Origin: Gammaproteobacteria bacterium
Lineage (GTDB): Bacteria > Pseudomonadota > Gammaproteobacteria > UWMA-0217
Length of the DNA stretch: 39,538 bases
Assembly: GCA_027031685.1 (NCBI GenBank)
Contig: JALVPS010000223.1
Span: forward strand, 1-39,538
Direction: 5' to 3'
Under the pieces are notes generated by a model. That model worked only from the letters and a program-made list of their open reading frames with translations, had not been told where the DNA came from and did no database searches. How positions within the stretch are numbered: the first letter of the stretch is position 1; every line of letters starts with the position of its first letter. This document shows, piece by piece, positions 4,027-22,362 of this stretch. The position numbers were made by a program, and so were the translations under genes.

Positions 4027-4034
4027 TTCTTGGT

Positions 4035-4325: not shown

Positions 4326-4378
4326 GGGCGGAACTGATATGTGACGGCGGTCACGTTTCATGCCCGGGAGGCTAGGCC

Positions 4379-4770: not shown

Positions 4771-4787
4771 ATAACGAGGATGAAGTG

Positions 4788-7252: not shown

Positions 7253-7263
7253 GGGAGGACAGC

Positions 7264-7455: not shown

Positions 7456-7541
7456 GCCTCGCGGACGGGCTGCGCCTGGTGATCGCCCTGGCGGCGCTGG
7501 CGGCGGCGTTCTGGACGGCCTGGCGGGGACTGGGGCGGTGA
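7452..7541 (+). CDS. tiny hydrophobic peptide (29 aa)
   Basis: ATGA overlap with the previous stop; LRLVIALAALAAAFWTAW. Confidence 0.3.
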   Translation: MSLADGLRLVIALAALAAAFWTAWRGLGR

Positions 7542-7635
7542 GCGGGCGGCGGCGCGTGTGGTGGCCGGCCCTGGCCCTGCCGCCGATCAATCTCTGGCGC
7601 ATGGCGCTCTGGCAGCCCCGGCGGGGGCGGCGCGG

Positions 7636-8109
7636 ATGAGCTGCGCGGACTGCGGGCCGATGTGCGGCGGGCGCTGGCTGGCCACGAGCGACCCGGCGGC
7701 CCTGCGCCTGCACCTGCCCTGGCCGCCGGCGCTCAATCGCTACTACCGCCACGTGCGTGGGCGCACGCTCATTTCCCGCGAGGGCCGCGAATATCGCCGG
7801 CAGGTGGCGCTGCACTGCCTGGCGGAGGATCGCGGCGCCTGGCCGCTCTCAGGCCGCCTGGCTGTGCGCATCCAGGCCGCGCCCCCGGACCGGCGCCGCC
7901 GCGACGTGGACGGGATGCTCAAGGCGGTGCTGGACGCGCTCACCCACGCCGGCCTGTGGCGGGACGACAGCCAGATCGACGACCTGCGCATCGTCCGCTG
8001 CCGGCCGGTGCCGGGCGGGGCGCTGGTGCTGGATGTGACGCCGCTGGCGGACTGTGACGCCGTTCACGAAACGGGGCATTGCCTCGCACGCGCCGGAAAT
8101 CGCGAATAG
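7636..8109 (+). CDS. rusA: RusA-family Holliday junction resolvase
   Basis: LHLPWPPALNRYYRH.., PPDRRRRDVDGMLKAVLDAL, WRDDSQIDDL. Confidence 0.85.
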   Translation: MSCADCGPMCGGRWLATSDPAALRLHLPWPPALNRYYRHVRGRTLISREGREYRRQVALHCLAEDRGAWPLSGRLAVRIQAAPPDRRRRDVDGMLKAVLDALTHAGLWRDDSQIDDLRIVRCRPVPGGALVLDVTPLADCDAVHETGHCLARAGNRE

Positions 8110-8141
8110 AATCAATCCGTTACGCGATAGGGAGGGAGATC

Positions 8142-8555
8142 ATGCACAAGCCGCACGGGCTCACGCCGAAGCAGGAGGCGTTCGCGGCGGCCTACGTGGA
8201 GACGGGCAATGCCTCGGAGGCCTACCGGCGGGCCTATCCGCGCTCCGTCCGCTGGAAGGCGGAGACGGTGCACAAGCGCGCCTCGGAGCTGCTGGCGGAT
8301 GGGGACGTTATGGGTAGGGTGGAGGCCTTGCGGGCCGAGCACCGCAAGCGCCACCGGGTGACGGTGGACCGTCTCACGAACGAGGCCTGGGAGGCCATCG
8401 AGCTGGCCAAGCGGGAGGGGCAGGCGGGGGCCTATGTGTCGGCCCTGCAGCTGATCGCCAAGATGCACGGCCTGCTGGTGGACAAGCACGCGGTGAAGGC
8501 CAGCGTGGAGCACAAGGGCGTGACGCGGCTGGAGGTGGTGCTGGTCGATGCCTGA
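8142..8555 (+). CDS. terminase small subunit (P27-type)
   Basis: ATG 8142 after GGAGGGAG; LTPKQEAFAAAYVETGNASEAYRRAY. Confidence 0.8.
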   Translation: MHKPHGLTPKQEAFAAAYVETGNASEAYRRAYPRSVRWKAETVHKRASELLADGDVMGRVEALRAEHRKRHRVTVDRLTNEAWEAIELAKREGQAGAYVSALQLIAKMHGLLVDKHAVKASVEHKGVTRLEVVLVDA

Positions 8556-9798
8556 GGCGGCCCGCCAGGACGACGCCACGGCGCGGGTGATGCTGCCGCG
8601 CTGGGTGGCGCCCTTCATGCGCCCGGCGCGCTACAAGATCGCCTACGGCGGGCGCGGCAGCGGCAAGTCGGTGAGCTTCGCCCGCCTGCTGCTGATGGCC
8701 GCGGCGGAGCGCCCGCTGCGCGTGCTGTGCGCCCGCGAGCTGCAGAACAGCATCGCCGACTCGGTGCACCAGCTGCTGGCGGACCAGATCCGGGCCATGG
8801 GCCTCGACGGCTGGTTCACGGTGCGCGAGAAGGACATCCTGGGACGCGCCGGCAGCCGCTTCCTGTTCAAGGGCCTGCGCGGCACCCGCAACGACGCCAG
8901 CCAGCTCAAGAGCCTGGAGGGCGTGGACATCTGCTGGATCGAGGAGGGGCAGACCGTGTCCAAGGCCAGCCTGGACACGCTGGTGCCCACCATCCGCAAG
9001 CCCGGCTCGGAGATCTGGATCAGCTTCAACCCGGATCAGGAGACGGACCCGGTGTACCAGCTGGCCCTGAACCCGCCCGAGGGGGCCGTGGTGCGCAAGG
9101 TGAACTGGGACGAAAATCCCTGGTTCCCGCCGGAGCTGGACGCGGAGCGGCGCCACATGCTGCGCACCGACCCGGACCTGTACGCCCACGTGTGGGAGGG
9201 CGAGTGCCGGCAGGTGACGGACGCCCAGGTGCTGCGCGGCAAGTGGCGCGTGGCGGACTGTCCGGACGCCATGCCGGACATGGACGGGCCCTACTACGGG
9301 GCGGACTTCGGCTTCGCGCGCGACCCCAGCACGCTCAACCGCTGCTACATCCACGGCAACACGCTGTACATCACCCACGAGGCGCACCGCCTGGGCTGCG
9401 AGGTGGTGGACCTGCCGGCCCTGTACGACACCGTGCCGGGCAGCCGCTCGCACACCATCCGCGCCGACTCGGCCCGGCCGGAGATCATCAGCCACCTGCG
9501 CCGCGAGGGGTTCCGCGTGACCGGCGTGGACAAGTGGCCCGGCTCGGTGGAGACCGGCGTCAACGTGCTGCGCAGCTTCGACGCCATTGTCATCCACTCC
9601 CGCTGCCGGCACACCATCGAGGAGGCGCGCCGCTACAGCTACAAGGTGGACCGCCTCACGGGCGACGTGCTGCCGCAGATCGTGGACGCCTGGAACCACC
9701 ACTGGGACGCCGTGCGCTACGCCCTCGCGCCCCTCATCCGCCGCCGCATGCGCACGTCCACCGGCATCGTCGGGCGCCGCCGGAGGACCATCGCGTGA
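8548..9798 (+). CDS. terminase large subunit (PBSX / Terminase_3-like)
   Basis: Walker A-like YGGRGSGKS and ARELQNSI motifs, followed by a C-terminal nuclease half. Overlaps TerS. Confidence 0.9.
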   Translation: MPEAARQDDATARVMLPRWVAPFMRPARYKIAYGGRGSGKSVSFARLLLMAAAERPLRVLCARELQNSIADSVHQLLADQIRAMGLDGWFTVREKDILGRAGSRFLFKGLRGTRNDASQLKSLEGVDICWIEEGQTVSKASLDTLVPTIRKPGSEIWISFNPDQETDPVYQLALNPPEGAVVRKVNWDENPWFPPELDAERRHMLRTDPDLYAHVWEGECRQVTDAQVLRGKWRVADCPDAMPDMDGPYYGADFGFARDPSTLNRCYIHGNTLYITHEAHRLGCEVVDLPALYDTVPGSRSHTIRADSARPEIISHLRREGFRVTGVDKWPGSVETGVNVLRSFDAIVIHSRCRHTIEEARRYSYKVDRLTGDVLPQIVDAWNHHWDAVRYALAPLIRRRMRTSTGIVGRRRRTIA

Positions 9799-10064
9799 GC
9801 GTCGGGCGCGATTCCATGCTGGACGAGATCGCCCTGGTCATCGGCCACGACGCCGCCCTGGCCCTGTGCCACGCCTTCGGCGGCCAGTACATCTACGTGC
9901 CGCAGGCCGGCCAGCGCCGCCTGCGCGACCGCGCCATCGCCCAGGCCCTGGCCGCCGGCGAGCCGGTGCGGCGGGTGGCGGCCCGCTACGGCGTCACCCA
10001 GCGGCACGCCCTGCGCATCGCCGCGCGCCACAAGTCACAAGCCCCCGAGGAGTCCACCCCATGA
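9795..10064 (+). CDS. Mor / C-family-like transcriptional activator
   Basis: FGGQYIYVPQ..RDRAI..RVAARYGVTQRHALRIA. GTGA overlap with the TerL stop; alternative ATG at 9816. Confidence 0.6.
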   Translation: MSVGRDSMLDEIALVIGHDAALALCHAFGGQYIYVPQAGQRRLRDRAIAQALAAGEPVRRVAARYGVTQRHALRIAARHKSQAPEESTP

Positions 10065-11596
10065 GCCGATCCCGATCCCGCCGCCGCACCCCGGCCAAGC
10101 CCCGCCGTCACGCCGCCCCGCGCCGCCGCGTCATGGCCGCCGGCGCCCTGCTGCGCGACAACTACGCCGTGCACCACGTCTTCGAGGCCCTCGCCGCCCT
10201 GCCGGACCCCGACTCGCTCATGGCCGCCGCCGGCATCGAGCGCCACCAGCTGCGCCAGATGGACGAGCAGGACGACTTCATCCACGGCGCCCTGGACACC
10301 CGCCGCGGCGCCGTCCTGGCCATGCCCTGGCGGCTGGAGCGCCTGGAGGGCGGCGACGGCAAGCCGGAGGACGCCAACACCCTGTTCGTGTGGGAGCAGC
10401 TGGAGCAGAACATCGGCAGCGAATCCCTGGTGCACGCCCTGCTGCGCGCCGCCTGGGACGCCGTGCCCTACGGCTACTCCGTGGCGCAGGTGAAGTACCG
10501 CCGCCTGGACGGCGGCCGCGTGGGCATCGAATGGGCGCGCACCGTGCCCATGCAGGACTTCCGCCCCGACCGCGCCGGCCAGCTGCTCATGCGCGACGCC
10601 GCCACCGGCGACTTCCGCCCCCTGCGCGACAAGGAGCGGCGCCAGTTCTTCCTCACCCGCCGCTTCCCCACCTACGCCCAGCCCTACGGCGAGGCCCTGC
10701 TGTCGCGCCTGTACTGGCCCTGGTTCTTCCGCCACAACGGTTGGCGCTTCTGGATGCAGTTCCTGGAGCGCTTCGGCGACCCCCTGCTGCTGGCCAAGAG
10801 CGACCGCCCGCGCCACATGGCCGACGAGCTGCTCAGGCTGGGCTTCGAGTCCTTCATCTCCGTAGCCATCGACGACGAGGTCACCGCCATCCACGCCACC
10901 GGCAAGGACAGCTTCGAGCAGCTGGAGCTGGCCCTGCAGCGGCGCGTGAACCTGCTCATCCTCGGCCAGACCCTCACCGCCGACGTGGGCCAGCGCGGCA
11001 GCTACGCCGCCGCCAAGGTCCACAACGAGGTGCGCCTGGACAAGCGCGACGCCGACCTGCGCCTGGTGATCCCCACCGTGCAGCGCGTGGTGGACGCCCT
11101 GTGGGCCGAGAACGGCTTTTCCGGCACCCCGCCCACCTTCATCATGGACGACGGCCGCGGCCTGCAGAAGGACCGCGCCGAGCGCGACGCCCTGCTGGTG
11201 CAGGCCGGCGTGCTGCGCCTCACCAGGGACTACCTGCTGCGCGTGTACGACTTCGAGGACGGCGACTTCGAGGTGCCGGAGCAGGGCGCCGCGCCCGCCA
11301 ATCAGGGCATGGCCGCGGGTGGACGGCTCGCCCTGGGCACGGGCGCGCCCTACACGCCCGGCCAGCAGCGCCTGGAGGCCCTGGCCGACAGCGCCCTCGA
11401 CCTGGCCGGCGCGCCCATCGACCCGGACGCCCTGCGCGAGGCCATCCGCACCGCCCGCAGCCCGGAGGCCCTGGACGCCGCCCTGGCGCGCCTGGCCGCC
11501 GACGCCGACCCCGCCGCCTACCGCGACCTGCTGGAGCGCGCCCTGTTCGCCGCCGACGTGCTCGGCTACATGACCGCCGACCGGCAGGAGGCCTGA
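10061..11596 (+). CDS. portal protein, Mu gp29 / DUF935-like
   Basis: ATGA overlap with the upstream gene; 511 aa. Lies between terminase and MuF, with DUF935-like N-terminal motifs. Confidence 0.8.
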   Translation: MSRSRSRRRTPAKPRRHAAPRRRVMAAGALLRDNYAVHHVFEALAALPDPDSLMAAAGIERHQLRQMDEQDDFIHGALDTRRGAVLAMPWRLERLEGGDGKPEDANTLFVWEQLEQNIGSESLVHALLRAAWDAVPYGYSVAQVKYRRLDGGRVGIEWARTVPMQDFRPDRAGQLLMRDAATGDFRPLRDKERRQFFLTRRFPTYAQPYGEALLSRLYWPWFFRHNGWRFWMQFLERFGDPLLLAKSDRPRHMADELLRLGFESFISVAIDDEVTAIHATGKDSFEQLELALQRRVNLLILGQTLTADVGQRGSYAAAKVHNEVRLDKRDADLRLVIPTVQRVVDALWAENGFSGTPPTFIMDDGRGLQKDRAERDALLVQAGVLRLTRDYLLRVYDFEDGDFEVPEQGAAPANQGMAAGGRLALGTGAPYTPGQQRLEALADSALDLAGAPIDPDALREAIRTARSPEALDAALARLAADADPAAYRDLLERALFAADVLGYMTADRQEA

Positions 11597-11600
11597 GCCG

Positions 11601-14114
11601 GTGGCCGAGCACCCGCCCTTCGACACCCACCGCGACGCCATCGAATGGGCCCGCGCCCGCCGCGTGGTGCTGCCCACCGAGTACTACGGCCTGCTGCAGC
11701 AGCGCGCCCGCGCCCAGGCCTTCGCCGTTGCCGGCCTGTCCGCCATCGACCAGGCCCAGCAGGTGCGCGACAGCCTCACCCGCGCCCTGGCCCGCGGCGA
11801 GACCTTCGCCGACTGGCAGGCCCGCGTCGAGCGCGGCGAGATCCCCCTCCACCTGCCGCGCCACCGCCTGGACAACATCTTCCGCACCAACCTGCAGGGC
11901 GCCTACATGGCCGGCCGCTGCCGCGCCATGCGCCGCCACGCCGAGGCGCGCCCCTACCTCATGTACTCCGCCATCAACGACAGCCGCACCCGCCCCGCGC
12001 ACCGCGCCATGCACGGCACCATCCTGCCCATCGACCACCCGTGGTGGGAGGAACATCTGCCGCCGAACGGGTTCCGGTGCTTTCTGCCCGGCACGCGCGT
12101 GCGCGGGAATTTCAGGGTGGGCCTAAAAGCCTTCTACGCGGGACGCGCCGTGGAAATAGTCACGGCGCAGGGTGCACGGCTGGCCGTCACCGCCAATCAC
12201 CCCATACTGACCCGGCAGGGCTGGGTGCGCGCGGACCAGGTCGCGGAAGGCGATGATCTTGTCCGCTATGGCGGCGAGGTCGGGGGTGCGTCTGCCGTGC
12301 CTGGGCAGGTAGACGACGAGCAGCCGCCACCCACGGTGGAAGAGGTCTTCGAGGTGCTCGCGGCGCAGCGACTTGGCCTCGCCGAGCCAGCGGCGTTCGA
12401 TCTCTACGGCGATGCGCAGTTCCTCGAAGGCGAGGTCTATGTTGCGGGTGCCGAGAGCGTACTGGTGCCGGGGGTGCGCCCCGCGTGCCCGCAGGGCGGC
12501 GAGGATGTCCAGCTCGACCGGCGAGACCATGCCCCCCACGCTGGCGCCATCGGCCTGAAAGGCCTGCACGCCGCGCGCCCTGGAGACGAGCTGCCGCCCG
12601 GAGAGGTCGAACCCGAGTTCGCGCAGACGCTTCTTGACGTAGGGCTTCGACACGCCCAGCGCATTGGCGATCTCCTGCGTCGTGTGGCCGGCCTCGAACA
12701 TCGACCCCATGGCGAAGTCGTGCCGGGCCAGTTTGCGCCCGCGGGCGGCCTCCCAGGCCTTGGCGCACTGCCTCTCGACCAGCGCCCGGTCCTGTTTGAT
12801 ACGCGCCCACTTGACCTTTTCCGCCGCGCTGCGACCGCGCACCTCCACCCCGTTGCGCAGGAGGAAGCCCTTCACGGCATTCCGGCTGACGCCGGCCGCC
12901 TCGGCGATGGCCTTGATGCTCATCCCGTCCTTGTAACTGGCGATGACGGCGGCCGGGTCCGCGGGCTGCCATCGTCTGTCCTTGACAGAGCGCGGCTCGA
13001 TACCCCGCTTGCGCAGGATGATGTGGAAGCTGCTGGTGCTGATCCCTCGCGCCTTGAGCAGATGGTGCATGACGGCGCCAGCGGTGTACTGCTCGACCAG
13101 GTAGTCGATGTCAGACGGTTCGAGTTTCGCGGCCATGTCTATGATTTCGAAACGGAAAACGGCCTGATCGTGGCCGAGGGCATCGTAACCCACAACTGTC
13201 GATGCACGGTAGTGCAACTATCCGAGGCCGAGGCCCGCCGGCGGGGTGTCACCACATCGCCGCCCGAGGCGTCACCCGATGACGGCTGGGACTACTCGGT
13301 GTGCCACCACGGCCCGGAGGAGGGCGTGGCGCGGGCGGCGGACGCGCGCGAGCGGGCCTGCGCCGATCTGGGCTTCGGGGCGCTGTTCGGGCTGCGCGGG
13401 CCGGAGGACGTGCTGGTGTGGTGCCACAACCAGCGGGTGCATGAGGCGGTTACCCGTCTGGCAGAGCGGGTGCGTGACTGGGACGACGATGAGGCCCTGG
13501 CGCGCGCGGCGCTGGGCGACGAGATCTGGGAGAAGCACTACAAGGCGGCGTCCGATCCAGAGATCACCCTCGATCTCAGTGTTCCGGAGCGGGTGGTGGT
13601 GCGCGCCTATACGGACTATCAGATCGACGTCTGGCCGCTCATGAACCGCCTGGCCCGCGAGCTGCCGCACGACCGGCGTCTGCCGGGCTTCACCGACGAG
13701 GAGCTGTTCCGGGCCGGCCTGCTGATCTACCTGATGGACCGGGCTATTGCCAAGCTGCCGACCATCGAGGACGAGTTCCGGCGCGGGGTGAAGCCGGAAG
13801 GGCTGGGCGCCCGCCGCACGGCCTACGTGAAATCGCACACGCATCGCGGGCGCATCGTCTCCTGGGAGGGCTATACTTCCATCATGGCTGGCAAGCCGTT
13901 CGAGGGCAGCATTCAGTTCATCATCGAGGCGAAACGCGCCGTGGACCTGGGGCCGCTGTCGGTGCAAAAGAAACCGGAATTGGTGCTGCCGAGAGGCACG
14001 AAGATCAGGATATTGGATTACGAGCGCTTTGACGGGTATCTGAGAATAGAAGCCGAGGAGGTGGAGCATGAAAGGCCCATCAGAGGAGAGCATCGTTTCG
14101 GCATTGAAGCGTGA
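11601..14114 (+). CDS. MuF / SPP1-gp7-type head morphogenesis protein interrupted by an intein, with an ADP-ribosyltransferase-like C-terminal domain
   Basis: GTG 11601 after GGCAGGAGG. MuF motifs SAINDSRTRPAHRAMHG and PPNGFR|CRCT, the latter split by 373 codons. C-terminal motifs YTDYQ..MNRLAR, FRRG, GYTS, PELVLPRGTKIRI. Confidence 0.8.
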   Translation: MAEHPPFDTHRDAIEWARARRVVLPTEYYGLLQQRARAQAFAVAGLSAIDQAQQVRDSLTRALARGETFADWQARVERGEIPLHLPRHRLDNIFRTNLQGAYMAGRCRAMRRHAEARPYLMYSAINDSRTRPAHRAMHGTILPIDHPWWEEHLPPNGFRCFLPGTRVRGNFRVGLKAFYAGRAVEIVTAQGARLAVTANHPILTRQGWVRADQVAEGDDLVRYGGEVGGASAVPGQVDDEQPPPTVEEVFEVLAAQRLGLAEPAAFDLYGDAQFLEGEVYVAGAESVLVPGVRPACPQGGEDVQLDRRDHAPHAGAIGLKGLHAARPGDELPPGEVEPEFAQTLLDVGLRHAQRIGDLLRRVAGLEHRPHGEVVPGQFAPAGGLPGLGALPLDQRPVLFDTRPLDLFRRAATAHLHPVAQEEALHGIPADAGRLGDGLDAHPVLVTGDDGGRVRGLPSSVLDRARLDTPLAQDDVEAAGADPSRLEQMVHDGASGVLLDQVVDVRRFEFRGHVYDFETENGLIVAEGIVTHNCRCTVVQLSEAEARRRGVTTSPPEASPDDGWDYSVCHHGPEEGVARAADARERACADLGFGALFGLRGPEDVLVWCHNQRVHEAVTRLAERVRDWDDDEALARAALGDEIWEKHYKAASDPEITLDLSVPERVVVRAYTDYQIDVWPLMNRLARELPHDRRLPGFTDEELFRAGLLIYLMDRAIAKLPTIEDEFRRGVKPEGLGARRTAYVKSHTHRGRIVSWEGYTSIMAGKPFEGSIQFIIEAKRAVDLGPLSVQKKPELVLPRGTKIRILDYERFDGYLRIEAEEVEHERPIRGEHRFGIEA
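12078..13196 (+). mobile_element. intein (Hint domain; Cys1 ... His-Asn / Cys+1)
   Basis: Block A CFLPGTRV, block B LAVTANHPILT, blocks F/G GHVYDFETENGLIVAEGIVTHN, followed by CRCT. Confidence 0.75.
12123..13136 (-). CDS. homing-endonuclease-like protein (3 HTH modules + Vsr/DUF559-like PD-(D/E)xK core), antisense inside the intein
   Basis: The - ORF has normal amino-acid composition, while the + frame opposite it looks like an antisense shadow. Motifs MSIKAIAEAAGVSRNAVKGFL, TTQEIANALGVSKPYVKKRL, NIDLAF..IAVEIERRW..GWRLLVVYL. The start is uncertain (ATG 13136, GTG 13193 or TTG 13217). Confidence 0.6.
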   Translation of the reverse strand: MAAKLEPSDIDYLVEQYTAGAVMHHLLKARGISTSSFHIILRKRGIEPRSVKDRRWQPADPAAVIASYKDGMSIKAIAEAAGVSRNAVKGFLLRNGVEVRGRSAAEKVKWARIKQDRALVERQCAKAWEAARGRKLARHDFAMGSMFEAGHTTQEIANALGVSKPYVKKRLRELGFDLSGRQLVSRARGVQAFQADGASVGGMVSPVELDILAALRARGAHPRHQYALGTRNIDLAFEELRIAVEIERRWLGEAKSLRREHLEDLFHRGWRLLVVYLPRHGRRTPDLAAIADKIIAFRDLVRAHPALPGQYGVIGGDGQPCTLRRDYFHGASRVEGF

Positions 14115-14295
14115 AGACATGTCGCCCGGGTTGAGGAAGAGTCTTGAGGAAGACCTGGACTGGATTCGCCGCGGCCGCCCGGAGGACGAGCTGATCCCGG
14201 ACTGGATGATCGAGAAGATGACCTGCGAAGCCGGCGGCCGCATCCCGGCCCGCTTCAAGCATCTGCAGCACCTCAACGACGACCTTGAAGACTGA
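14068..14295 (+). CDS. small acidic hypothetical protein (75 aa), candidate immunity partner of the MuF toxin domain
   Basis: ATG 14068 after GAGGAGGTGGAG. Overlaps the MuF 3' end by 47 nt. Confidence 0.55.
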   Translation: MKGPSEESIVSALKREDMSPGLRKSLEEDLDWIRRGRPEDELIPDWMIEKMTCEAGGRIPARFKHLQHLNDDLED

Positions 14296-14788
14296 GTTCA
14301 CCCTCGAGGACCGCGCCCTGCGCAAGGCGCTCAGGTACCTGCGCCGGCGGGTGCACGACAACGCGGCCATGATGGACGGCATCGCCGCCGCCTGGGCGGA
14401 CCGGGTGCGGCTCGGCTTCCACGACGGGCGCGACCCCTGGGGCGATCCCTGGGCGCCGCTCAAGCCGTCCACCATCGCCCGCCGGCGCAACCGCTCCGAC
14501 CAGCCGCTGCGCGACACGGGCCGGCTGCGGTCCAGCATCTACCACCGCGCCGGGCGCGACTGGCTGGAGGTGGGGCTGGCCGCCAAGTACGCCGGCACGC
14601 ACCAGTTCGGCGCCCGCAAGGGCCAGTACGGCCGCACGCGCCGCGGCGCGCCCATCCCCTGGGGCGACGTGCCGGCCCGCCCCATGCTGCCGGCCAGCGG
14701 CCGCCACGTGCTGCTGCCGCGCGAGTGGCAGACGGACGCGCGCGACGCCGTGGTGGACCACTTGAAGCGCGGCCTGCCACGCGCCTGA
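14285..14788 (+). CDS. virion morphogenesis protein, Mu gpG-like
   Basis: GDPWAPLKPSTIARRR..PLRDTGRLRSS..GTHQFG motifs and a position after MuF. TTG start. Confidence 0.65.
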   Translation: MKTEFTLEDRALRKALRYLRRRVHDNAAMMDGIAAAWADRVRLGFHDGRDPWGDPWAPLKPSTIARRRNRSDQPLRDTGRLRSSIYHRAGRDWLEVGLAAKYAGTHQFGARKGQYGRTRRGAPIPWGDVPARPMLPASGRHVLLPREWQTDARDAVVDHLKRGLPRA

Positions 14789-14820
14789 CCCCTTCCCTCT
14801 ACGTTCCATCGACCCCTCCT

Positions 14821-14843
14821 GCCCGCCTCGCGCGGGCTTTTTT
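14821..14843 (+). terminator. Rho-independent terminator
   Basis: GCCCGC-CTCGC-GCGGGC followed by TTTTTT. Confidence 0.75.
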
Positions 14844-14864
14844 ACGCCCGGAATCGCCCGGCAC

Positions 14865-14896
14865 GGGTGACATTTGTCACCTGTAAAATGTCACCT
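14865..14896 (+). repeat. 32-nt element GGGTGACATTTGTCACCTGTAAAATGTCACCT, copy 1
   Basis: Identical to 35297-35328. Lies between a terminator and the protease/scaffold gene. Confidence 0.95.
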
Positions 14897-14918
14897 CCCG
14901 TGGGCCACCCTGCGGCCC

Positions 14919-15812
14919 ATGAGCAACGACGCCCTCTTCCTGAGCGCCCCCCTGGCGCTGTCTTCCGGCCGGAAGGACGGTGAGCCGCCCCGCTTCGAGG
15001 GGGTGGCCTACTCCGGCGGCCTGGTGCCCGACTATGGCGTGGTGGTCGATCTGGCCAGCGCGCGGGTGGAGGCGCCCATGCCGCTGCTGTTCGGCCACCG
15101 CCACGAGAAGGACATCGGCGTGATCGAGCGCGCCGAGGTGGCCGACAACCGCCTCACCGTGGCCGGCCAGCTGTTCGCCGGCATCGACCCGGACGCCGAC
15201 AAGGTGGTGGCCAAGGCCCGCGCCGGCGCCGCCTACCAGCTCTCCGTCGGCCTGTTCGACTTCAACGTGGAATTCGTCGGCCAGGGCAAGACCGTCACCG
15301 TCAACGGCCAGGAGTTCCAGGGCCCCGTTGAGGTGATCCGCGACGCGCACATCCGCGAGACCTCCGTCGTGGCGCTGGGCGCCGACCCCAGCACCGCCGT
15401 GACCGTGTTCGCGCGGCCCGGCCAAGCCCCATCCCCCGCATCACCACCGGAGACCCCCACCGTGAGCGACAAGACCGACACCGCGGCCCTCGAGGCCGAG
15501 AACCAGCAGCTCAAGGCCGAGCTGGAAGCCCTGCGCGGCGAGCTGGCCGCCATGCGCCAGGCCGCCCGCGAGGCGGAAGTGAAGGCCCTGTTCCAGGCCA
15601 TCGGCCGCGAGTACAGCGCCGAGGCGGCGAAGCCCTTCCTGGACCTGCCCGGCGAGGCCTTCGCCGCCGTGGCGGAGCAGATGAAGGCCCTGGCCGCCGA
15701 GCGGCCCGCCGCCGCGCCGCAGGACGACGACGACCACACCACGGACTACCGGCCCAGCACCGGCGGCGAGTCCACGCTGCTGTCCGTGATGCGCGCCCGC
15801 TACCAGAGCTGA
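14919..15812 (+). CDS. prohead protease / scaffold fusion (Mu gpI-like)
   Basis: N-terminal protease-like half (LLFGHRHEKDIGV) plus a C-terminal coiled coil (ALEAENQQLKAELEALRGELAAMRQ). Confidence 0.7.
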   Translation: MSNDALFLSAPLALSSGRKDGEPPRFEGVAYSGGLVPDYGVVVDLASARVEAPMPLLFGHRHEKDIGVIERAEVADNRLTVAGQLFAGIDPDADKVVAKARAGAAYQLSVGLFDFNVEFVGQGKTVTVNGQEFQGPVEVIRDAHIRETSVVALGADPSTAVTVFARPGQAPSPASPPETPTVSDKTDTAALEAENQQLKAELEALRGELAAMRQAAREAEVKALFQAIGREYSAEAAKPFLDLPGEAFAAVAEQMKALAAERPAAAPQDDDDHTTDYRPSTGGESTLLSVMRARYQS

Positions 15813-15826: not shown

Positions 15827-16198
15827 ATGCCCGTGTACACCGAACCCGCCCGCCTCAGCGATGTGCTCAAGCGGGAATTCGACCCCCTCTACAACCGCGA
15901 GAGCGTGACCCTCACCGGCGGCAGCTATCTCGTCGGCGCCGTGGTCATGGAAGGCGCCGGCGGCACCTGGTCCGCCTGGGCCGCCCCGGCCGCCGGCGAC
16001 CCCGTGCCCAAGGTCGGCGTGGTGCTGTTCGAGACCGACGCCAGCGCCGCCGACCGGCCCGCCACGCTCCTGCTGCGCGGCCCCGCCGTGGTGGCCGAGA
16101 GCGCCCTCGTCTTCGACGCGGGCGTGGACGATGCCGGCAGGGCCGCCGCCCTGGCCGCCCTGGCCGATCAGGGCATCGTGGCCCGCAAGACCGTTTGA
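15827..16198 (+). CDS. head decoration protein (lambda gpD-like)
   Basis: 123 aa immediately upstream of the capsid gene; ..ATLLLRGPAVV motif. Confidence 0.6.
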   Translation: MPVYTEPARLSDVLKREFDPLYNRESVTLTGGSYLVGAVVMEGAGGTWSAWAAPAAGDPVPKVGVVLFETDASAADRPATLLLRGPAVVAESALVFDAGVDDAGRAAALAALADQGIVARKTV

Positions 16199-16210: not shown

Positions 16211-17218
16211 ATGCCCATGATCAACCCCGCCAACATCTTCAGCCTGTCCGACCTGTCGGAGGCCATCAACATCGTTCCCAACCGCTACGGGCGGCTGAAC
16301 GAGATGGGCCTGTTCCCCGTCAAGGGCCACACGGTGGACACCATCTCCATCGAGGAGAAGAACGGCGTGCTCACGCTCATCCCGTCCACCACCGACGGCG
16401 GCCCCGGCGTGGTCGGCTCGCGCGGCCGGCGCAAGCTGCGCACCTTCAAGATCCCGCAGATGGTGTTCGAGGACCACTTCTCCGCCAAGGAGCTGGCCCA
16501 CGCCCGGGCCTTCGGCAAGAACGTCAAGGAGACCGTGCAGGAGATGATGGCCGACAAGCTGGAGGGCGCCCGCTCCCGCCACGACATCACCCTGGAGTTC
16601 CTGCGCATGGGCGCGCTCAAGGGCCTGATCATCGACGGCGACGGCAGCACCGTGCTCTACGACCTGTTCGCCGAGTTCGGCATCACCAAGAAGGTGGTCA
16701 ACTTCAAGCTCGGCACCCAGGGCACCAAGGTGGCCAACCTGTGCCGCGAGGTGGTGCGCCACATCGAGGACAACCTCATGGGCGAGGTGATGACCGGCGT
16801 GCGCGCCCTGGTCTCGCCCGAGTTCTACGACGCCCTCATCACCCACCCCAACGTGGAAAAGGCCTACCTCAACTGGAGCGCGGCCCAGGACCGCATCGGC
16901 GGCGATCTGCGCAAGGGCTTCCCCTTCGGCGGCATCGTCTTCGAGGAGTACCGCGGCAAGGCCACCGACGCCAGCGGCACCGTCCACCGCTACCTGGACG
17001 AGGGCAAGGCCATCGCCTTCCCCACCGGCACGGCGCAGACCTTCCGCACCCACGTGGGGCCGGCCGACTTCAACGAGACCATCGGCCGCGTCGGCCAGCT
17101 CTACTACGCCAAGGTCACGCCCACCAGGAACGACCGCGGCTGGGACATCCACACCCAGAGCAACGTGCTGCCGCTGTGCCAGCGGCCGGGCGTGCTGGTG
17201 GAGCTGACCGCGAGCTGA
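16211..17218 (+). CDS. major capsid protein, lambda gpE family
   Basis: 335 aa with N-terminus IFSLSDLSEAINIVPNRYGRLNEMGLF, typical of the family. Confidence 0.85.
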   Translation: MPMINPANIFSLSDLSEAINIVPNRYGRLNEMGLFPVKGHTVDTISIEEKNGVLTLIPSTTDGGPGVVGSRGRRKLRTFKIPQMVFEDHFSAKELAHARAFGKNVKETVQEMMADKLEGARSRHDITLEFLRMGALKGLIIDGDGSTVLYDLFAEFGITKKVVNFKLGTQGTKVANLCREVVRHIEDNLMGEVMTGVRALVSPEFYDALITHPNVEKAYLNWSAAQDRIGGDLRKGFPFGGIVFEEYRGKATDASGTVHRYLDEGKAIAFPTGTAQTFRTHVGPADFNETIGRVGQLYYAKVTPTRNDRGWDIHTQSNVLPLCQRPGVLVELTAS

Positions 17219-17747: not shown

Positions 17748-18212
17748 GTGGAGACCGGCCGCCTCACGCCCCACTTCAGCCTGGCGGAGCTGACCCGCTC
17801 CCACGTGGCCCTGCGGGGGGGCATCGACAACACCCCGCCGCCGGAGCGGCTGCCGGCCCTGCGCTACCTGGCGGAGCAGCTGGAGGTGATCCGCACCCTG
17901 CTGGGCGGCGTGCCGCTGCACATCACCTCCGGCTACCGCTGCCCGGCGCTCAACCGGGCCGTGGGCGGCTCGCGCCGCTCGCGCCACATGCTCGGCCTGG
18001 CCGCCGACTTCGTGGCCCCGGAGTTCGGCACCCCGCTGGAGATCGCCCGCCACCTGGTACAGCAGGGCAAGGCCTTCGACCAGCTCATCCACGAGGGCCA
18101 CTGGGTGCACTTCGCCGCCCCGCGCCGCCCGCTGCGGCCCGAGGGGCGCCTGCTCACGGCCCGCTTCGGGCCGGGCGGCGTGCGCTACGAGGCGGGGCTG
18201 GACGAAGGGTGA
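17748..18212 (+). CDS. endolysin, peptidase M15 (zinc D-Ala-D-Ala carboxypeptidase-like)
   Basis: FSLAELTRS.., ITSGYRCPALN, SRHMLGLAADF, HWVHF. Confidence 0.8.
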   Translation: METGRLTPHFSLAELTRSHVALRGGIDNTPPPERLPALRYLAEQLEVIRTLLGGVPLHITSGYRCPALNRAVGGSRRSRHMLGLAADFVAPEFGTPLEIARHLVQQGKAFDQLIHEGHWVHFAAPRRPLRPEGRLLTARFGPGGVRYEAGLDEG

Positions 18213-18218
18213 CGGGGG

Positions 18219-18359
18219 ATGGCGCTGGACCGCCTGGAACAATCGAAAACGCTGCGGCGCATGTACTACGCCGCCCTGCTCGCCATGGTCCTGGTGGCCG
18301 TGGTGCGCAGCCTGCCGGCGCTGTTGCAGGCCGTCGCGGCGTTGACCACCACTCACTGA
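18219..18359 (+). CDS. small membrane peptide, distant family member (46 aa)
   Basis: RRMYYAALLAMVLVAVVRSLPALLQAVAAL aligns with RRLAWGLLTVLVYWRLPELLRAVAEIV. Confidence 0.45.
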   Translation: MALDRLEQSKTLRRMYYAALLAMVLVAVVRSLPALLQAVAALTTTH

Positions 18360-18380
18360 TAACACAAGAGGGCTTGGCGC

Positions 18381-18575
18381 ATGCAAGACACCAAATCACT
18401 GCTCCAGAGCAAGACCATCTGGGGCTCCATCATCACCATGGCCTCGGTCGGCGCGCAGCTGGCCGGCATCGACATCGGCGACACCGGCGGCTGGGTGAAC
18501 TCCATCACCGCCCTCATCGGCGCCGCGCTGTCGTTCTACGGCCGCATCAAGGCGGTCAAGCGCATCCGCGTCTGA
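18381..18575 (+). CDS. putative holin (2 TM)
   Basis: 64 aa, SKTIWGSIITMASVGAQLAG..ITALIGAALSFYGRIKAVKR, adjacent to the endolysin. Confidence 0.6.
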   Translation: MQDTKSLLQSKTIWGSIITMASVGAQLAGIDIGDTGGWVNSITALIGAALSFYGRIKAVKRIRV

Positions 18576-18589
18576 GGGATGCATGACGC

Positions 18590-18820
18590 ATGACGGCCGA
18601 CACCCGCGAGATCGAGCTCAACCGCACGGTGGGCGAGCTGGCCGCGCGCCAGAACGCCATGGCGGAGCGCATCCGGCGCATGGAGCAGCACATGGAGCAC
18701 ATGGAGAACACCCTGGACGAGATCCGGCAGATGCAGCGCGTGCTGCGCTGGATTCTGGGCGTGTTCACCGCCGTCTCCAGCACCGTCGCGGGGGCCGTCG
18801 TCGTCAGCCTGCTGACCTGA
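18590..18820 (+). CDS. XhlA-like coiled-coil protein with a C-terminal TM helix
   Basis: Coiled-coil N-terminus and C-terminal LGVFTAVSSTVAGAVVVSLL. Confidence 0.45.
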   Translation: MTADTREIELNRTVGELAARQNAMAERIRRMEQHMEHMENTLDEIRQMQRVLRWILGVFTAVSSTVAGAVVVSLLT

Positions 18821-18945
18821 TGCTGATCGTCGGCGACCTGCTCTGCACCCTGGCCCTGGCGGCCCTCGTCGCCTGGCTGTTCTGGCAGACCGGCGCCGGC
18901 CCGGACCCGCAACCGCCCCGACAACCCATGGGAGTGACCACATGA
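18820..18945 (+). CDS. small membrane peptide (41 aa)
   Basis: TGATG overlap; MLIVGDLLCTLALAALVAWLFW. Confidence 0.3.
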   Translation: MLIVGDLLCTLALAALVAWLFWQTGAGPDPQPPRQPMGVTT

Positions 18946-19157
18946 GCGCACACCTCCTCAAGTTCAACCCGCGCAACGGCATCCCGCTGGTGGAGCACTT
19001 CGCCAGCGTGGCGGAGATGACGCAGTACTACAACGGCCACCCGCAGGGCGTGCCCATCACCACGCCGGCCGAGCTGGCCATGGTCAAGGAGCAGTACCAG
19101 GGCAACAAGTTCGTCATGCCCCTGCTGGAGCGCATCGACCCGGACGATCTGGGGTAA
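18942..19157 (+). CDS. hypothetical protein (71 aa)
   Basis: ATGA overlap with the previous ORF; coding-like composition. Confidence 0.5.
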   Translation: MSAHLLKFNPRNGIPLVEHFASVAEMTQYYNGHPQGVPITTPAELAMVKEQYQGNKFVMPLLERIDPDDLG

Positions 19158-19161
19158 GGCC

Positions 19162-19626
19162 ATGCCCGCGAGCACCTGGCTGGTGGGGCAGGCGGCCTAC
19201 GTGGCCCGCTTCGGCCACGGCGAGTGGACCGACCTCACCGACACCGACGGCAGCGGCCAGCCCGACGGGGACATGGTGGCCGCCGCCGTGGCTGACACCA
19301 CCGCCGACGTGAGCCGCTACCTGCGCCAGGCGGGCTACGGCGCCCTGGTGGGGCAGGCCGAGGGCGTGCCGGAGGACCTGCGCCGCCGCGCCCTGGACAT
19401 CCTGCGCTACCTGCTGCACCGCAACCGCCCCAGCGACGAGGTGCGCGAGCGCTACCGGGACGCCGTGGCCTGGTTCGACGCCCTGGTGGCCGGCGACGTG
19501 GTGCTGTACGGCGCCGACGGTCAGCCCCTGCCGCGCCGCGTGGACGAGCCCAACCGCGCCCACCGGGCCGTGGGCAACACGCGGCGCATGGTGTACGGCG
19601 CGGACTTCCTGCGGAGGTACGGATGA
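19162..19626 (+). CDS. Mu gp36 / DUF1320-like head-tail connector protein
   Basis: 154 aa; ..ADVSRYLRQAGY..LDILRYLLH.. pattern and its position. Confidence 0.6.
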   Translation: MPASTWLVGQAAYVARFGHGEWTDLTDTDGSGQPDGDMVAAAVADTTADVSRYLRQAGYGALVGQAEGVPEDLRRRALDILRYLLHRNRPSDEVRERYRDAVAWFDALVAGDVVLYGADGQPLPRRVDEPNRAHRAVGNTRRMVYGADFLRRYG

Positions 19627-19736
19627 GCGGCAGGGCGGCAGGCATCACGGGCATCCTGCTGGCCGTCTCGGCGGTGATCGGCGCGGTGGCGCTGCTCATC
19701 TGGTCCGTATCGGCGCTGGTGGGGGTGCTGCGATGA
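19623..19736 (+). CDS. small membrane peptide (37 aa)
   Basis: ATGA overlaps on both sides; ITGILLAVSAVIGAVALLIWSVSALVGVL. Confidence 0.35.
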   Translation: MSGRAAGITGILLAVSAVIGAVALLIWSVSALVGVLR

Positions 19737-20170
19737 CCGCCACCCGCGTCCAGGAGTGGATCGAGCGCCTGCGCGAGATCGCCCCCGCCCTGGGCATCCC
19801 CCGCGTCGAGGGCCTGGCCGAGTACGTCACCGCCGACATGGACCTGGACCGCCTGCCGGCCATCTGGGTGCTGCCCGTCAGCCACGACGTCACGCGCGAG
19901 CCGCCGGTGCGCGAGGAGACCTGGCGCTACGCCGTCATCATCGCCCTGCGCTCGGCCCGCCAGCGTGAGCGCGACACCCGCCTGCTGACCGGCGTGGAGG
20001 CCCTGTGCGGCGCCATCCGCGAGCACCTGGAGTCGTGGCAGGCCGGCGAGCTGTGCGGGCGCGAGATCGAGTACGAGCGAGGAGAGGGCCGCGGCCTGGA
20101 CGACGCCGGGCACGTCTTCTTCTGGCAGCAGACCTACGCCGAGCGCATCACCCTGCTCGATGGAGAGTGA
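19733..20170 (+). CDS. Mu gp37-like tail completion / head-tail joining protein
   Basis: 145 aa; called by position and size, with weak motif memory. Confidence 0.45.
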   Translation: MTATRVQEWIERLREIAPALGIPRVEGLAEYVTADMDLDRLPAIWVLPVSHDVTREPPVREETWRYAVIIALRSARQRERDTRLLTGVEALCGAIREHLESWQAGELCGREIEYERGEGRGLDDAGHVFFWQQTYAERITLLDGE

Positions 20171-20172
20171 CC

Positions 20173-20352
20173 ATGAGCCGCAAGACCAGACGCAAGACCG
20201 CCGGCCCCGCGCCGGCGCCCCGGCCCGCCACCCCGGCGCCCCTGCCGGACGGTGGTGGCGACTACATCCGCACGCCCGACGGCGGCGTGGCGCCCGATGG
20301 CGGCGCCCCGGACGGCGAACCCCGTGACACCACCGAGGACACCGAGTCATGA
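20173..20352 (+). CDS. low-complexity Pro/Gly/Asp-rich small protein (59 aa)
   Basis: ATG 20173; its stop overlaps the next start. Confidence 0.3.
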   Translation: MSRKTRRKTAGPAPAPRPATPAPLPDGGGDYIRTPDGGVAPDGGAPDGEPRDTTEDTES

Positions 20353-21272
20353 GCGATATCCAGTTCTCCCGCAGCACCGTCATCCGCGGCAAGCTCGAAT
20401 CCGCCTACGGCGTGGAGACCCCGCCCGGCGCCAACGACGCCGCCTTCGAGGTCTCCAACCTCAGCTACAAGCGCCTGGACGGCTCCCGCCCCGCGCGCGA
20501 GAGCGTGGACCCCTACTTCGGCCACCCCGGCGAGCTGCCCGGCCGGCACTACAGCTCCCTGGGCTTCTCCACCTACGTGCGCAAGGTGGCCACCCCCGGC
20601 GACAAGCCGGACATCGACCCCCTGCTGCAGGCCTGCGGGCTGGCCGCCGTCATCACCGGCGGGCAGGACGTCACCTACAACCCGGTGCAGAAGAACCTCA
20701 AGAGCATGACCTTCTGGGCCCACCTCAACGGCCACCTGCACAAAGTGGTGGGCGCCCGCGGCAGCCTGCAGCTGAGCGGCGAGCTGGGCGGCCAGCTGCG
20801 CGCCCAGTTCAGCTTCCAGGGCCTGCCCAAGGGCTCGCCGGCCGACGAGGCCTTCCCAACCATCGCCCGCCCGGACGGCTGCGTGGACGCCCTGGACGGC
20901 GACAACTGCAGCGTGACCCTGTTCGGCACCCCCCTGCAGATCGTCAGCTTCAGCATCGACCTGCAGAACCAGCTGCAGCACATCGTCACCAGCGCCGGCG
21001 AGCAGATCGCCATCACCAACCGCGCCGCCACCGGCGAGCTGGTGGTCATCAAGCCCAGCGTGAGCGAGTTCGACTACCACGCCAAGGAGGCCGACCCCTG
21101 CGCCACCGGCACCCTGGAACTCACCGCCGGCGGCCTGCAGATCAGCGCCCCGGCCGTCTCCCTGGGCACCGTCACCGACCTGGGCGACCACAACGGCGTG
21201 GCCACCGTCACCCTGCCGCTCATGTTCCGGCGCTCGGCGGGCAATGACGACCTGCTGCTGAAATTCAGCTGA
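20349..21272 (+). CDS. major tail (tube) protein
   Basis: 307 aa immediately upstream of the G/GT chaperone pair and the tape measure. Confidence 0.65.
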   Translation: MSDIQFSRSTVIRGKLESAYGVETPPGANDAAFEVSNLSYKRLDGSRPARESVDPYFGHPGELPGRHYSSLGFSTYVRKVATPGDKPDIDPLLQACGLAAVITGGQDVTYNPVQKNLKSMTFWAHLNGHLHKVVGARGSLQLSGELGGQLRAQFSFQGLPKGSPADEAFPTIARPDGCVDALDGDNCSVTLFGTPLQIVSFSIDLQNQLQHIVTSAGEQIAITNRAATGELVVIKPSVSEFDYHAKEADPCATGTLELTAGGLQISAPAVSLGTVTDLGDHNGVATVTLPLMFRRSAGNDDLLLKFS

Positions 21273-21273
21273 G

Positions 21274-21313
21274 AAAAATGAAAAGCCCCTGCGGTGGTGG
21301 GACACCCAGGGGC
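21274..21313 (-). terminator. GC hairpin with T-run on the - strand (A-run on +)
   Basis: GCCCCTG-15 nt-CAGGGGC preceded by AAAAATGAAAA on the + strand. Confidence 0.4.
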
Positions 21314-21343
21314 ACGGCAATCACCAGCACGAGTGGTGACTAC

Positions 21344-21493
21344 GTGAGCAAGTATAGCAAGGCACTGCGAGAGCTCAGAAAGATGGGAGAAAGACTGCCC
21401 GCCTGGCGATTCCTGGCCCTGCTGGCCTTCGTGCTGCTGGCCGAGCTGGCCCTGCTCATCGCCTGGCGGCTGCCCCTGCTGCTGGACCACTGA
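21344..21493 (+). CDS. small membrane peptide, KYSKAL / WRLP family (49 aa)
   Basis: GTG 21344. VSKYSKALRELRK..LPAWRFLALL..AWRLPLLL is paralogous to 36315..36452, with many synonymous differences between them. Confidence 0.5.
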   Translation: MSKYSKALRELRKMGERLPAWRFLALLAFVLLAELALLIAWRLPLLLDH

Positions 21494-21514
21494 AACGACA
21501 GGAGAAAGAGCCCC

Positions 21515-21877
21515 ATGGCCATTGTGCGCGGCAAAGACGACGCCTACTGGTGGCAGGTGCACCACAAGGTGCCGGTGGACGACGGCCGCTACGCCGCCGT
21601 CTCCCTCAAGGCCAAGTTCAAGCGCCTGGACAAGGCCCGCGTGGGCCAGGTGCTGGACGCCATCACCAATGGCGACGCCAGCCTGAGCGACGAGGACCTG
21701 GTGCGCGAGGTGCTGCTGGACTGGAAACAGGTGCGCGGCCTGGAGCTGGAGGACGGCAGCGAGCCCAGCTTCGCCGTGGACGACCAGCGCGAGTGGGTGC
21801 TGGGCATCATCGGCATGGAAGCGGCCATCGTGCGCGCCTGGGCCGAGAGCGTCACCGGAGGGCGCCTAAAAAACTGA
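21515..21877 (+). CDS. tail assembly chaperone (gpG-like)
   Basis: 120 aa upstream of the tape measure, ending at a slippery site. Confidence 0.7.
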   Translation: MAIVRGKDDAYWWQVHHKVPVDDGRYAAVSLKAKFKRLDKARVGQVLDAITNGDASLSDEDLVREVLLDWKQVRGLELEDGSEPSFAVDDQREWVLGIIGMEAAIVRAWAESVTGGRLKN

Positions 21878-22224
21878 CGGAGGCGGCCCGCCGCTGGGCG
21901 GAGGGCGACGGACAGGCGCAGGCCGCCGCCGACGCCCTGGGCGTGGCCGGCGTGGCGCCGGCGGAGGACTACGAAGTGTGGTCGGAGAACTGGGCCGTCT
22001 TCGAGTGCTTCACGCTCTGCCAGTGGCAGTGGGTGGGCGGCATGGGCGTCATGCGCGCCGGGCTGGACCAGGCCGCCGCCTGGGCGCTCATCGAGCGCCA
22101 CCCGGACATGCCCGACGACCGCCGGGCGCGCTGGGCGGCCTTCGAGGCCCTGCAGCTCATGGCCGCCGAGGCACTGGCCGTGTGGGCCGGCTCAGGAGGA
22201 CAGCCAGCGGATCGTGTCCACTAG
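21515..22224 (+). CDS. tail assembly chaperone -1 frameshift product (gpGT-like, DUF1799-like extension)
   Basis: The -1 frame is open from the slippery site to 22224. The extension contains ENWAVFECFTLCQWQW..GLDQAAAWALIE. Confidence 0.6.
21868..21874 (+). other. -1 programmed frameshift heptamer A-AAA-AAC
   Basis: X XXY YYZ in the zero frame (cta aaa aac tga), directly before the gpG-like stop. Confidence 0.6.
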
Positions 22225-22341
22225 CAGCCACACGAGCGTCACGGCGAGCAGCCCCAGCCCGGCCCACACCGCCCACAGGCCGAACTCCGGCGAGCGCAGG
22301 ATCAGCAGCAGGGCGGCGGCGAAACTCATCAGATACGGCAT
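22192..22341 (-). CDS. small two-TM peptide on the opposite strand (49 aa)
   Basis: MPYLMSFAAALLLILRSPEFGLWAVWAGLGLLAVTLVWLLVDTIRWLSS. Very high GC3. Fills the only gap in the + late operon. Confidence 0.4.
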   Translation of the reverse strand: MPYLMSFAAALLLILRSPEFGLWAVWAGLGLLAVTLVWLLVDTIRWLSS

Positions 22342-22362
22342 GCCAGGAGCATAGCGACACCC

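Follow-up and report, generated by a model that had tools for sequence, protein, structure and literature searches.

The activators Mor and C of bacteriophage Mu both recognize a 16-bp dyad whose centre is at −43.5 and which overlaps the −35 box or takes its place, and the promoters they serve also need bases just downstream of the dyad (PMC4390567, PMC2582627). Here, we describe a 32-nt element, GGGTGACATTTGTCACCTGTAAAATGTCACCT, that occurs twice in a temperate phage sequence from an uncultivated gammaproteobacterium. The window, that is, the whole 39,538-nt stretch of DNA that was analysed, is the entire contig C223 (JALVPS010000223.1) of a 2.75-Mb, 505-contig metagenome-assembled genome (MAG). 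Our preferred reading, to which we assign a probability of about 0.72, is that the element supplies the upstream half of a late promoter of the Mu Pm/PI type that depends on an activator, which would place it in the already known class of Mor/C-dependent promoters. This reading is built on the observed architecture of the sequence, its conservation in relatives and the co-occurrence of Mor genes, from which binding, activator dependence, timing and start points are predicted.

As at the C-dependent Mu promoters PI, Plys, PP and Pmom and the Mor-dependent promoter Pm, a 16-bp dyad lies just upstream of the −35 position or overlaps it, centred about 31–33 bp before the −10 hexamer, and there is no −35 hexamer; the dyad centre stands 31.5 bp before the first −10 base in Mu and 32.5 bp in this phage. 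The bases immediately past the dyad are likewise conserved, one promoter directly precedes the protease/scaffold gene (gene I in Mu), and a small Mor/C-family activator would be supplied by the preceding transcription phase, a timing that is predicted here. Unlike Mu, the phage is non-transposable; its immunity genes (CI, Cro, CII-like) are of lambda type, its replication genes are O/DnaC-like, and it encodes an integrase. It encodes a single 89-aa activator rather than a Mor-then-C cascade; its dyad is perfect and of another sequence, accompanied by an extra third half-site and a very weak −10; and its scaffold mRNA is predicted to be leaderless.

Anatomy of the element and promoter geometry

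Exact copies of the element are found at 14865–14896 and 35297–35328, both on the forward strand, as a preliminary description of this DNA had noticed; no additional match with three or fewer mismatches exists in the window (0.00 expected from 100 shuffles). A third exact copy is present in the same MAG on contig C368 (C368:188–219), 5′ of a pair of genes encoding AlpA and a primase-helicase, and degenerate copies with up to six mismatches are absent from the entire 2.75-Mb assembly. Alignment of the three copies with their flanks demonstrated that identity is confined to the 32-mer and ends abruptly on both sides. The copies occupy three unrelated contexts, and their orientation always matches the sense of the downstream gene. 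Copy 1 lies between a strong intrinsic terminator and the ATG of the gpI-like scaffold gene at 14919, and copy 2 contains the TGA stop (35300–35302) of the 1691-aa fibre open reading frame (ORF) and precedes a 127-aa ORF starting at 35385, settings that the preliminary description had also recognized.

Element positions 2–17 form a perfect 16-bp dyad, GGTGACA-TT-TGTCACC (C368:189–204 in copy 3), composed of the half-sites GGTGACA at 2–8 and TGTCACC at 11–17; a third half-site, again TGTCACC, is at 25–31. In copy 1, the first two half-sites correspond to 14866–14872 and 14875–14881 and the third to 14889–14895, in agreement with an earlier count of GTGACA once and TGTCAC twice. Element positions 20–25 read TAAAAT (14884–14889 in copy 1), and an outer 10-bp inverted repeat relates positions 2–11 to 22–31.

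Downstream of the element, a hexamer of the form nAnnnT is placed exactly 24 nt past the dyad, and 9 nt past the 32-mer, in all three copies (CACCCT, GATCAT and CATGCT), so that both key bases, A43 and T47 in element numbering, are retained. Among 58 offsets, this is the sole one with nAnnnT in every copy, against a background of 2.0–2.2% per position (p ~4e-4 corrected for 41 offsets). With the first hexamer base 32.5 bp from the dyad centre, the dyad would be centred at about −44.5. Within the window, a GAC-N4-GTC dyad combined with a properly placed hexamer occurs only at the two copies of the 32-mer. The −35 position reads TGTAAA or GTAAAA, at most 3/6 of the consensus; TGTAAAAT, which occupies it, appears unusable as a −35, and a consensus promoter scan found nothing there. 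The preliminary description had singled out TAAAAT as a −10-like hexamer without a properly spaced −35. The hexamer is there and a usable −35 is not, but TAAAAT starts merely 10.5 bp from the dyad centre, a distance that misfits Mor/C-type activation and would suit an operator, and it is therefore probably not the −10; it falls at the −35 position, and the hexamer 24 nt past the dyad fits much better.

TAAAAT is central to an alternative that we regard as unlikely, in which the 32-mer is a self-contained promoter and operator: TAAAAT, with a TG just upstream, would be the true −10, transcription would start near the end of the 32-mer, and the three GGTGACA half-sites would be operators for a repressor that silences the late genes, and the candidate satellite operon on C368, in the lysogen. 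The hexamer agrees with the consensus at five of six positions, no other stretch of this 69% GC phage is as AT-rich, the dyad and third half-site would span the spacer and start point in a typical repressor layout, and conservation extends over the entire 32-mer and not over the flank that holds the alternative −10. However, the half-site is absent from the immunity region, where the PR-like promoter has a different spacer, and the phage has two copies of the element with none at 3900–4300 (CI, PR, cro), which is not the distribution of a repressor operator or stoperator set. A start at about 14896 would also leave the scaffold transcript with a 23-nt leader that lacks a Shine–Dalgarno (SD) sequence and has its AUG in an 8-bp hairpin (14899–14921), ill-suited to a highly expressed scaffold, and the invariant A43 and T47 would go unexplained.

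Only 7 nt separate the end of the copy 1 hexamer from the scaffold ATG, and an SD sequence is missing there; under the Mor-dependent promoter reading, the scaffold would thus probably be translated from an mRNA with a 1-nt leader or none. In read-through transcripts, the hairpin at 14899–14921 (CGUGGGCC/GGCCCAUG) would bury the scaffold AUG; consequently, the scaffold would be translatable only from transcripts that start at the ATG. The predicted leaders of copy 2 (~35 nt) and copy 3 (~26 nt) each carry a normal SD, which at promoter 2 is held in a hairpin formed by GGGUCUCCA...UGGAGACCC.

The mutually exclusive hairpins described earlier for the element are real: either positions 2–7 pair with 12–17, or positions 1–11 pair with 22–32, the latter being the strongest RNA fold of the 32-mer (−14.6 kcal/mol, z −4.2). 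These folds, together with copy 2, whose place in the 3′ end of the fibre gene puts it within a late transcript, could be taken to indicate an RNA element serving as a switch, processing site or stabiliser in late transcripts. UCACCU motifs in the element mimic the 3′ end of 16S rRNA and could mask an SD; GUCACCUCC, present in copies 1 and 3, resembles the anti-SD of that rRNA. Alternative hairpins, however, follow automatically from the three protein half-sites, the strong terminator ahead of copy 1 should let little RNA cross that copy, no Rfam family matches the element, and the relatives considered below retain only the 16-bp dyad and its distance to the −10 and ATG, with no alternative pairing. 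We thus find an RNA function improbable; in the promoter model, the 32-mer would be absent from the RNA starting there.

Several other candidates were rejected. The element does not qualify as an intrinsic terminator, as what comes after its hairpin is TGTAAAAT or flanking sequence that lacks a T-run, and a terminator scan calls only the site at 14821–14845. For a reverse-strand promoter, TTTACA and a 17-nt spacer lead to no −10; a half-site acting as −35 for either hexamer has the wrong spacing; a LexA box (CTGT-N8-ACCT) has the wrong right arm; and the motifs of sigma-54 or ECF-type promoters are absent.

The window possesses two similar dyads, TGTGACGGCGGTCACG (4340–4355, between the post-cro terminator and the CII-like gene) and TGTGACGCCGTTCACG (8053–8068, at the end of rusA just before terS), which are 14/16 identical and share a GTGAC-N4-GTCAC core with the 32-mer. 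As further late promoters they were rejected, lacking a hexamer at the right offset; they could instead represent nut-like RNA hairpins or be bound by a different regulator.

Mor-family genes and dyads in related phages

The candidate activator is encoded by the Mor-family ORF located between terL and the portal gene (9795–10064), which the preliminary description had marked as Mor/C-like. The assignment is borne out by a match to Pfam PF08765 (Mor) at 38.3 bits versus a cut-off of 24.9 and by a match to PHROG 836, ‘late transcriptional activator’ (E 9.5e-16). Among PDB sequences it matches Mu Mor (1rr7) best; FGGQYIYVP and RYGVTQRHALRI are the segments that align with the GGxxxYIP strand and the RYGVT helix-turn-helix. 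The N-terminal dimerisation part is shorter than that of Mor, and the Pfam match begins at model position 23. This ORF is the only Mor-family gene above the cut-off in the MAG, and the searched ORFs included no Ogr/Delta-family activator.

Taken together, a model for late transcription can be proposed. An early rightward transcript would run through the replication genes, terS, terL, the Mor gene, portal, MuF and the gpG-like gene, and would stop at the terminator at 14821–14845. The Mor-family protein made from this transcript would then bind the 16-bp dyad, in place of a −35 box and centred at about −44.5, and would recruit host sigma-70 RNA polymerase to the weak nAnnnT −10 that lies 24 nt past the dyad, outside the 32-mer. 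The conserved TGTAAAATGTCACCT would cover about −36 to −22 and correspond to the bases directly past the dyad that are likewise required at Mu promoters. Because of the strong terminator just upstream, a new promoter is needed at copy 1; from this promoter 1, transcription would start at or 1 nt before the scaffold ATG and cover the head-tail operon as far as the fibre gene in a leaderless mRNA. Promoter 2 would start near 35350 and serve the genes after the fibre, and the third copy would place the alpA and primase-helicase operon of C368 under the same phage activator. That Mu-like late promoters without a −35 box are served by the phage's own Mor/C-like protein had been suggested from the analogy with Mu, and the suggestion gains support from the geometry, from the architecture of relatives and from the co-occurrence of Mor genes.

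The 32-mer is restricted to this phage. A 12-kb stretch had no megablast match among deposited phages, and the three-half-site pattern had no match in IMG/VR; in GTDB representative genomes, it had seven matches, none a related copy of the element and most of them TGTCACC heptamer arrays or tandem half-site runs, with one (L006) an unrelated operator-like site. In JGI metagenomes, the 32-mer was found on two contigs, both of the same phage strain (L011 and L012; Ga0256832), and a search of 60 related genomes did not recover the dyad of this phage. Relatives were gathered through the scaffold protein. A single-protein search of IMG/VR with the scaffold had no match, a word-indexed search with the Mor protein returned only itself, and the Mor and scaffold proteins each had one distant match in genomes searched at class level; an alignment-based IMG/VR search succeeded and added 80 loci to a first set, for a total of 90.

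In the first set, the loci L023, L027 and L025 possess the dyads ACTGACACGCGTCAGT, CTGACGCATGTCAG and CGGACATCTGTCCG, centred at −44.5 or −45.5 from the ATG; CACCAT, CAGCAT or GACGCT stands at the pre-specified distance of 24 nt past the dyad, and 6–7 nt separate it from the ATG. The pre-specified offset was met by two independent lineages (L023 and L025; p ~6e-4). A full layout, defined as a perfect dyad centred 30.5–34.5 bp before an nAnnnT hexamer that ends 5–9 nt before the ATG, is present in 13 of the 90 scaffold loci and at 0.8% of random positions in the same DNA; the dyad centre lies 30.5–33.5 bp before the hexamer in 12 related loci. An SD-like match is missing in 12 of the 13 (L045 has one), and slightly imperfect layouts were seen by eye in several more loci. 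The dyads are lineage-specific in sequence yet symmetric, among them TTGACA-CC-TGTCAG, GGACA-NN-TGTCC, TTAAC-ATCG-GTTAA and CTGGAA-TT-TTCCAG. This constancy of distance under changing sequence also bears against the self-contained operator, as relatives hold the dyad-to-ATG distance and have no −10-like hexamer 2 nt past the dyad.

The relatives' layouts are accompanied by Mor genes. In every layout locus with at least 2.2 kb of upstream flank, a Pfam Mor gene is located 2.2–7.5 kb upstream on the same strand, and the Mor-scaffold synteny matches that of this phage. Checking nine such loci (seven with the strict layout and the imperfect L036 and L042) identified the gene directly in eight, at 35–78 bits, and by similarity only in L045. 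In L024 and L013, a Mor-like gene directly precedes the scaffold gene, and L021, L024 and L025 share the terminator-then-scaffold layout. The recognition helix has Arg at positions 3 and 7 in all five lineages with GACA-type dyads; each of the three lineages with other dyads differs at position 3, position 7 or both, which hints at a link between helix and dyad type. A CRP-like host factor was rejected as the binding protein, since it would account neither for the third half-site nor for dyads that are lineage-specific and go together with Mor genes.

One relative, G413, possesses two identical dyads (TTTTAACATCGGTTAAAA) 11.3 kb apart, one ahead of its scaffold gene and the other ahead of a baseplate wedge gene; both ATGs lie exactly 50 nt after the dyad start, with the hexamers TAAGCT and GATACT. 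The pair resembles the two-copy layout of this phage and the Mu promoters PI and PP. No second dyad copy was found in G412, G414 or G415, the records of which are 39–79% complete.

Several observations weigh against the Mor-dependent reading. The hexamers proposed as −10 elements are weak, as CACCCT at copy 1 shows, and the 32-mer itself contains the much better TAAAAT. Neither the relatives nor Mu have a counterpart of the third half-site or of the 10-bp outer palindrome (2–11/22–31), and these sequences are placed where a bound protein would be expected to hinder the polymerase; being specific to this phage, they might fine-tune or limit activation. The Mor ORF is short (89 aa versus 129 aa in Mu Mor), with weak pairwise similarity to Mor (E 0.089). 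Loci L013, L021, L024 and L028 have no recognizable dyad at this place, the correspondence between recognition helix and dyad draws on only eight related lineages, and the Ga0256832 strain, at ~1% divergence (14 and 9 differences in ~1.4 kb), provides no test of constraint.

The third copy and candidate satellites

Contig C368 is 3.7 kb long (71.7% GC), and its copy of the element is located 47 nt upstream of an AlpA-family gene (22.6 bits versus a cut-off of 21) that is followed by a gene for a 1025-aa RepB-primase/PriCT/DUF927 protein. On the assembled 3.7 kb, no integrase, cos site or capsid-size genes were seen. Four lines of evidence suggest that C368 is separate from the phage: i) the phage has its own O/DnaC replication genes, ii) C368 has no end overlap with other contigs, iii) copies 1 and 2 are present in the Ga0256832 metagenome, from which no third copy was obtained, and iv) a related island, L014, exists. 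This island (4789–15295 of CAKZDD010000118.1, GCA_936421365.1) is 10.4 kb long and flanked by 56-nt tRNA-derived direct repeats; it encodes an integrase, AlpA, an HTH_36 protein, DUF927, a protein 31% identical to the scaffold of the phage described here, a Mor gene and a TMP_2-like gene, making it a candidate phage satellite that would encode its own scaffold and late activator. Its scaffold and Mor homologues hint at a satellite lineage tied to this phage group. We lean towards C368 being part of a separate satellite-like island, an assignment limited by MAG binning and the shortness of the contig.

Two known systems offer a comparison. In the P2/P4 pair, Ogr and delta both switch on the late genes of P2 and P4 (PMC8628076), and helper-specific induction of alpA is known from phage-inducible chromosomal islands (PICIs) (PMC11773190). 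As in P2/P4, one putative activator site is found in the proposed phage late promoters and before a satellite-type operon with a primase gene. Here, however, the activator would be a Mor/C helix-turn-helix protein rather than a member of the Ogr/Delta family, so that the arrangement would work alike without being a member of that system, and the third promoter copy is an exact 32-nt duplicate, not a diverged site. Like Gram-negative PICIs, C368 has alpA followed by a primase/replicase gene; unlike them, its proposed trigger would be a copy of the helper's late promoter, and its host is an uncultivated high-GC bacterium, not an enterobacterium. It is possible, although we put the chance somewhat below even, that a satellite-like island captured the helper's exact Mor-dependent late promoter and that the helper's activator would thereby directly switch on its alpA and replication genes.

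A related alpA-primase island is also present in a genome of the same family (L031, G009:C128, ~8170–8270, minus strand), where a sigma-70-like promoter, CTGACA-18 nt-TACGCT, precedes alpA. One segment of this promoter, ACCTCCCCCG, corresponds to the 3′ end of copy 3 with its flank; ancestrally, the island may have had an ordinary promoter.

Gene map and attachment region

The gene map, based on third-position GC together with Pfam and PHROG searches, is that of a mosaic, non-transposable phage in which lambda-like immunity and replication are joined to a Mu-like head (Table 1). The product of the 127-aa gene had no Pfam or PHROG match.

Table 1 Features of the 39,538-nt window
Feature	Position	Strand	Remark
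CI-like repressor	3280–3913	−	
PR-like promoter	3998–4026	+	TTGACC-17-TAAAGT
cro-like gene	4035–4265	+	
Terminator	4298–4317	+	
CII-like gene	4379–4654	+	
O-like replication initiator	4785–5765	+	
DnaC-like loader	5641–6603	+	
SSB	6773–7252	+	
RusA	7558–8109	+	
terS	8142 (ATG)–8555	+	
terL	8548–9798	+	
Mor-family gene (89 aa)	9795–10064	+	between terL and portal; proposed reader of the element
Mu-type portal	10061–11596	+	
MuF with intein	11601–14114	+	
gpG-like morphogenesis gene	14285–14788	+	
Intrinsic terminator	14821–14845	+	stem 14821–14837, GCCCGC-CTCGC-GCGGGC then TTTTTT; closes the packaging/portal/MuF/gpG operon containing the Mor gene
32-mer copy 1	14865–14896	+	dyad GGTGACATTTGTCACC 14866–14881 (proposed Mor box), then conserved TGTAAAATGTCACCT holding the third half-site 14889–14895
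−10-like hexamer CACCCT, putative late promoter 1	14906–14911	+	same offset in all copies; predicted start 14918/14919
Scaffold/prohead protease (gpI-like)	14919–15812	+	opens the head-tail late operon; PHROG 3244 head maturation protease, E 5.5e-27
Decoration protein	15827–16198	+	
Major capsid protein E	16211–17218	+	
Endolysin and tail genes	17748–30221	+	
Fibre, 1691 aa	30227–35302	+	
32-mer copy 2	35297–35328	+	dyad 35298–35313; overlaps the fibre stop codon; exact repeat
−10-like hexamer GATCAT, putative late promoter 2	35338–35343	+	same offset as copies 1 and 3; predicted start near 35350
127-aa gene	35385–35768	+	third-position GC 0.96; first gene after putative late promoter 2

Three further features accompany the immunity, replication and right-arm regions. 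On the minus strand at 37825–38000, Rfam identifies a C4 antisense RNA (68 bits) and its a1/b1 target (57.7 bits); the gene that immediately follows them (36686–37807, minus strand) encodes a P22_AR_N antirepressor, from which we conclude that the phage carries a P1/P7-type immI module in addition to its CI repressor. Inside the O-like initiator gene, 5145–5264 holds about eight tandem copies of GGGAAGCACCCG, which are probably origin iterons, as in lambda O. A HicB-like antitoxin gene (38267–38683, plus strand; PHROG 497, E 1.5e-34) is located in the lower-GC right arm near att.

The preliminary description had also drawn attention to GTGACAT motifs around the att core and envisaged one DNA-binding protein linking late transcription and att functions. 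The motif does occur four times in 39284–39519, and ten times in the window versus three expected; the four sites, TGTGACAT[AT] at 39283–39520, flank a tRNA 3′ fragment at ~39400–39455. The right end of C223 overlaps contig C149 (L032) by 127 nt, and C149:109–1302 (minus strand) encodes a tyrosine integrase; the assembly runs across attP or a prophage end. Since the sites flank the core on both sides next to an integrase gene, which is the usual attP layout, they are probably integrase arm-type sites. The proposed link to late transcription is not supported: at all four sites, both a dyad partner and a hexamer at the promoter offset are absent, and we regard the seven-nt identity with the element half-site as an unexplained coincidence.

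That identity is nevertheless one reason to ask whether the element is instead a recombination or protein-loading site, either an integrase arm-type-like cluster or a module-exchange boundary recently copied between mobile elements; the perfect, sharp-edged copies in two different mobile elements are another. Such a site would have to accommodate att sites that all start with T and lack a dyad partner, element half-sites that all start with G, and a fixed orientation and distance to downstream genes. The dyad-to-ATG architecture that relatives build from other sequences argues for a function in gene expression, not for a recent insertion, and we hold this explanation to be improbable.

With the Mor-dependent promoter reading, the analysis sets out an expression programme for an uncultivated mosaic temperate phage that combines lambda-type immunity and replication with a Mu-type head. 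If C368 belongs to a satellite, it would represent a clean case of a satellite wiring its induction to the late activator of its helper by promoter copying; if true, this would be promoter mimicry with a Mor/C-type activator and would provide a concrete mechanism for helper-specific alpA induction. More broadly, a large and poorly studied phage group with Mu-type portal, MuF and scaffold genes would appear to use a conserved design consisting of a Mor box, a weak −10 and a leaderless scaffold mRNA, the lineage-specific boxes of which offer an aid to annotation and material for the co-evolution of activators and their sites.

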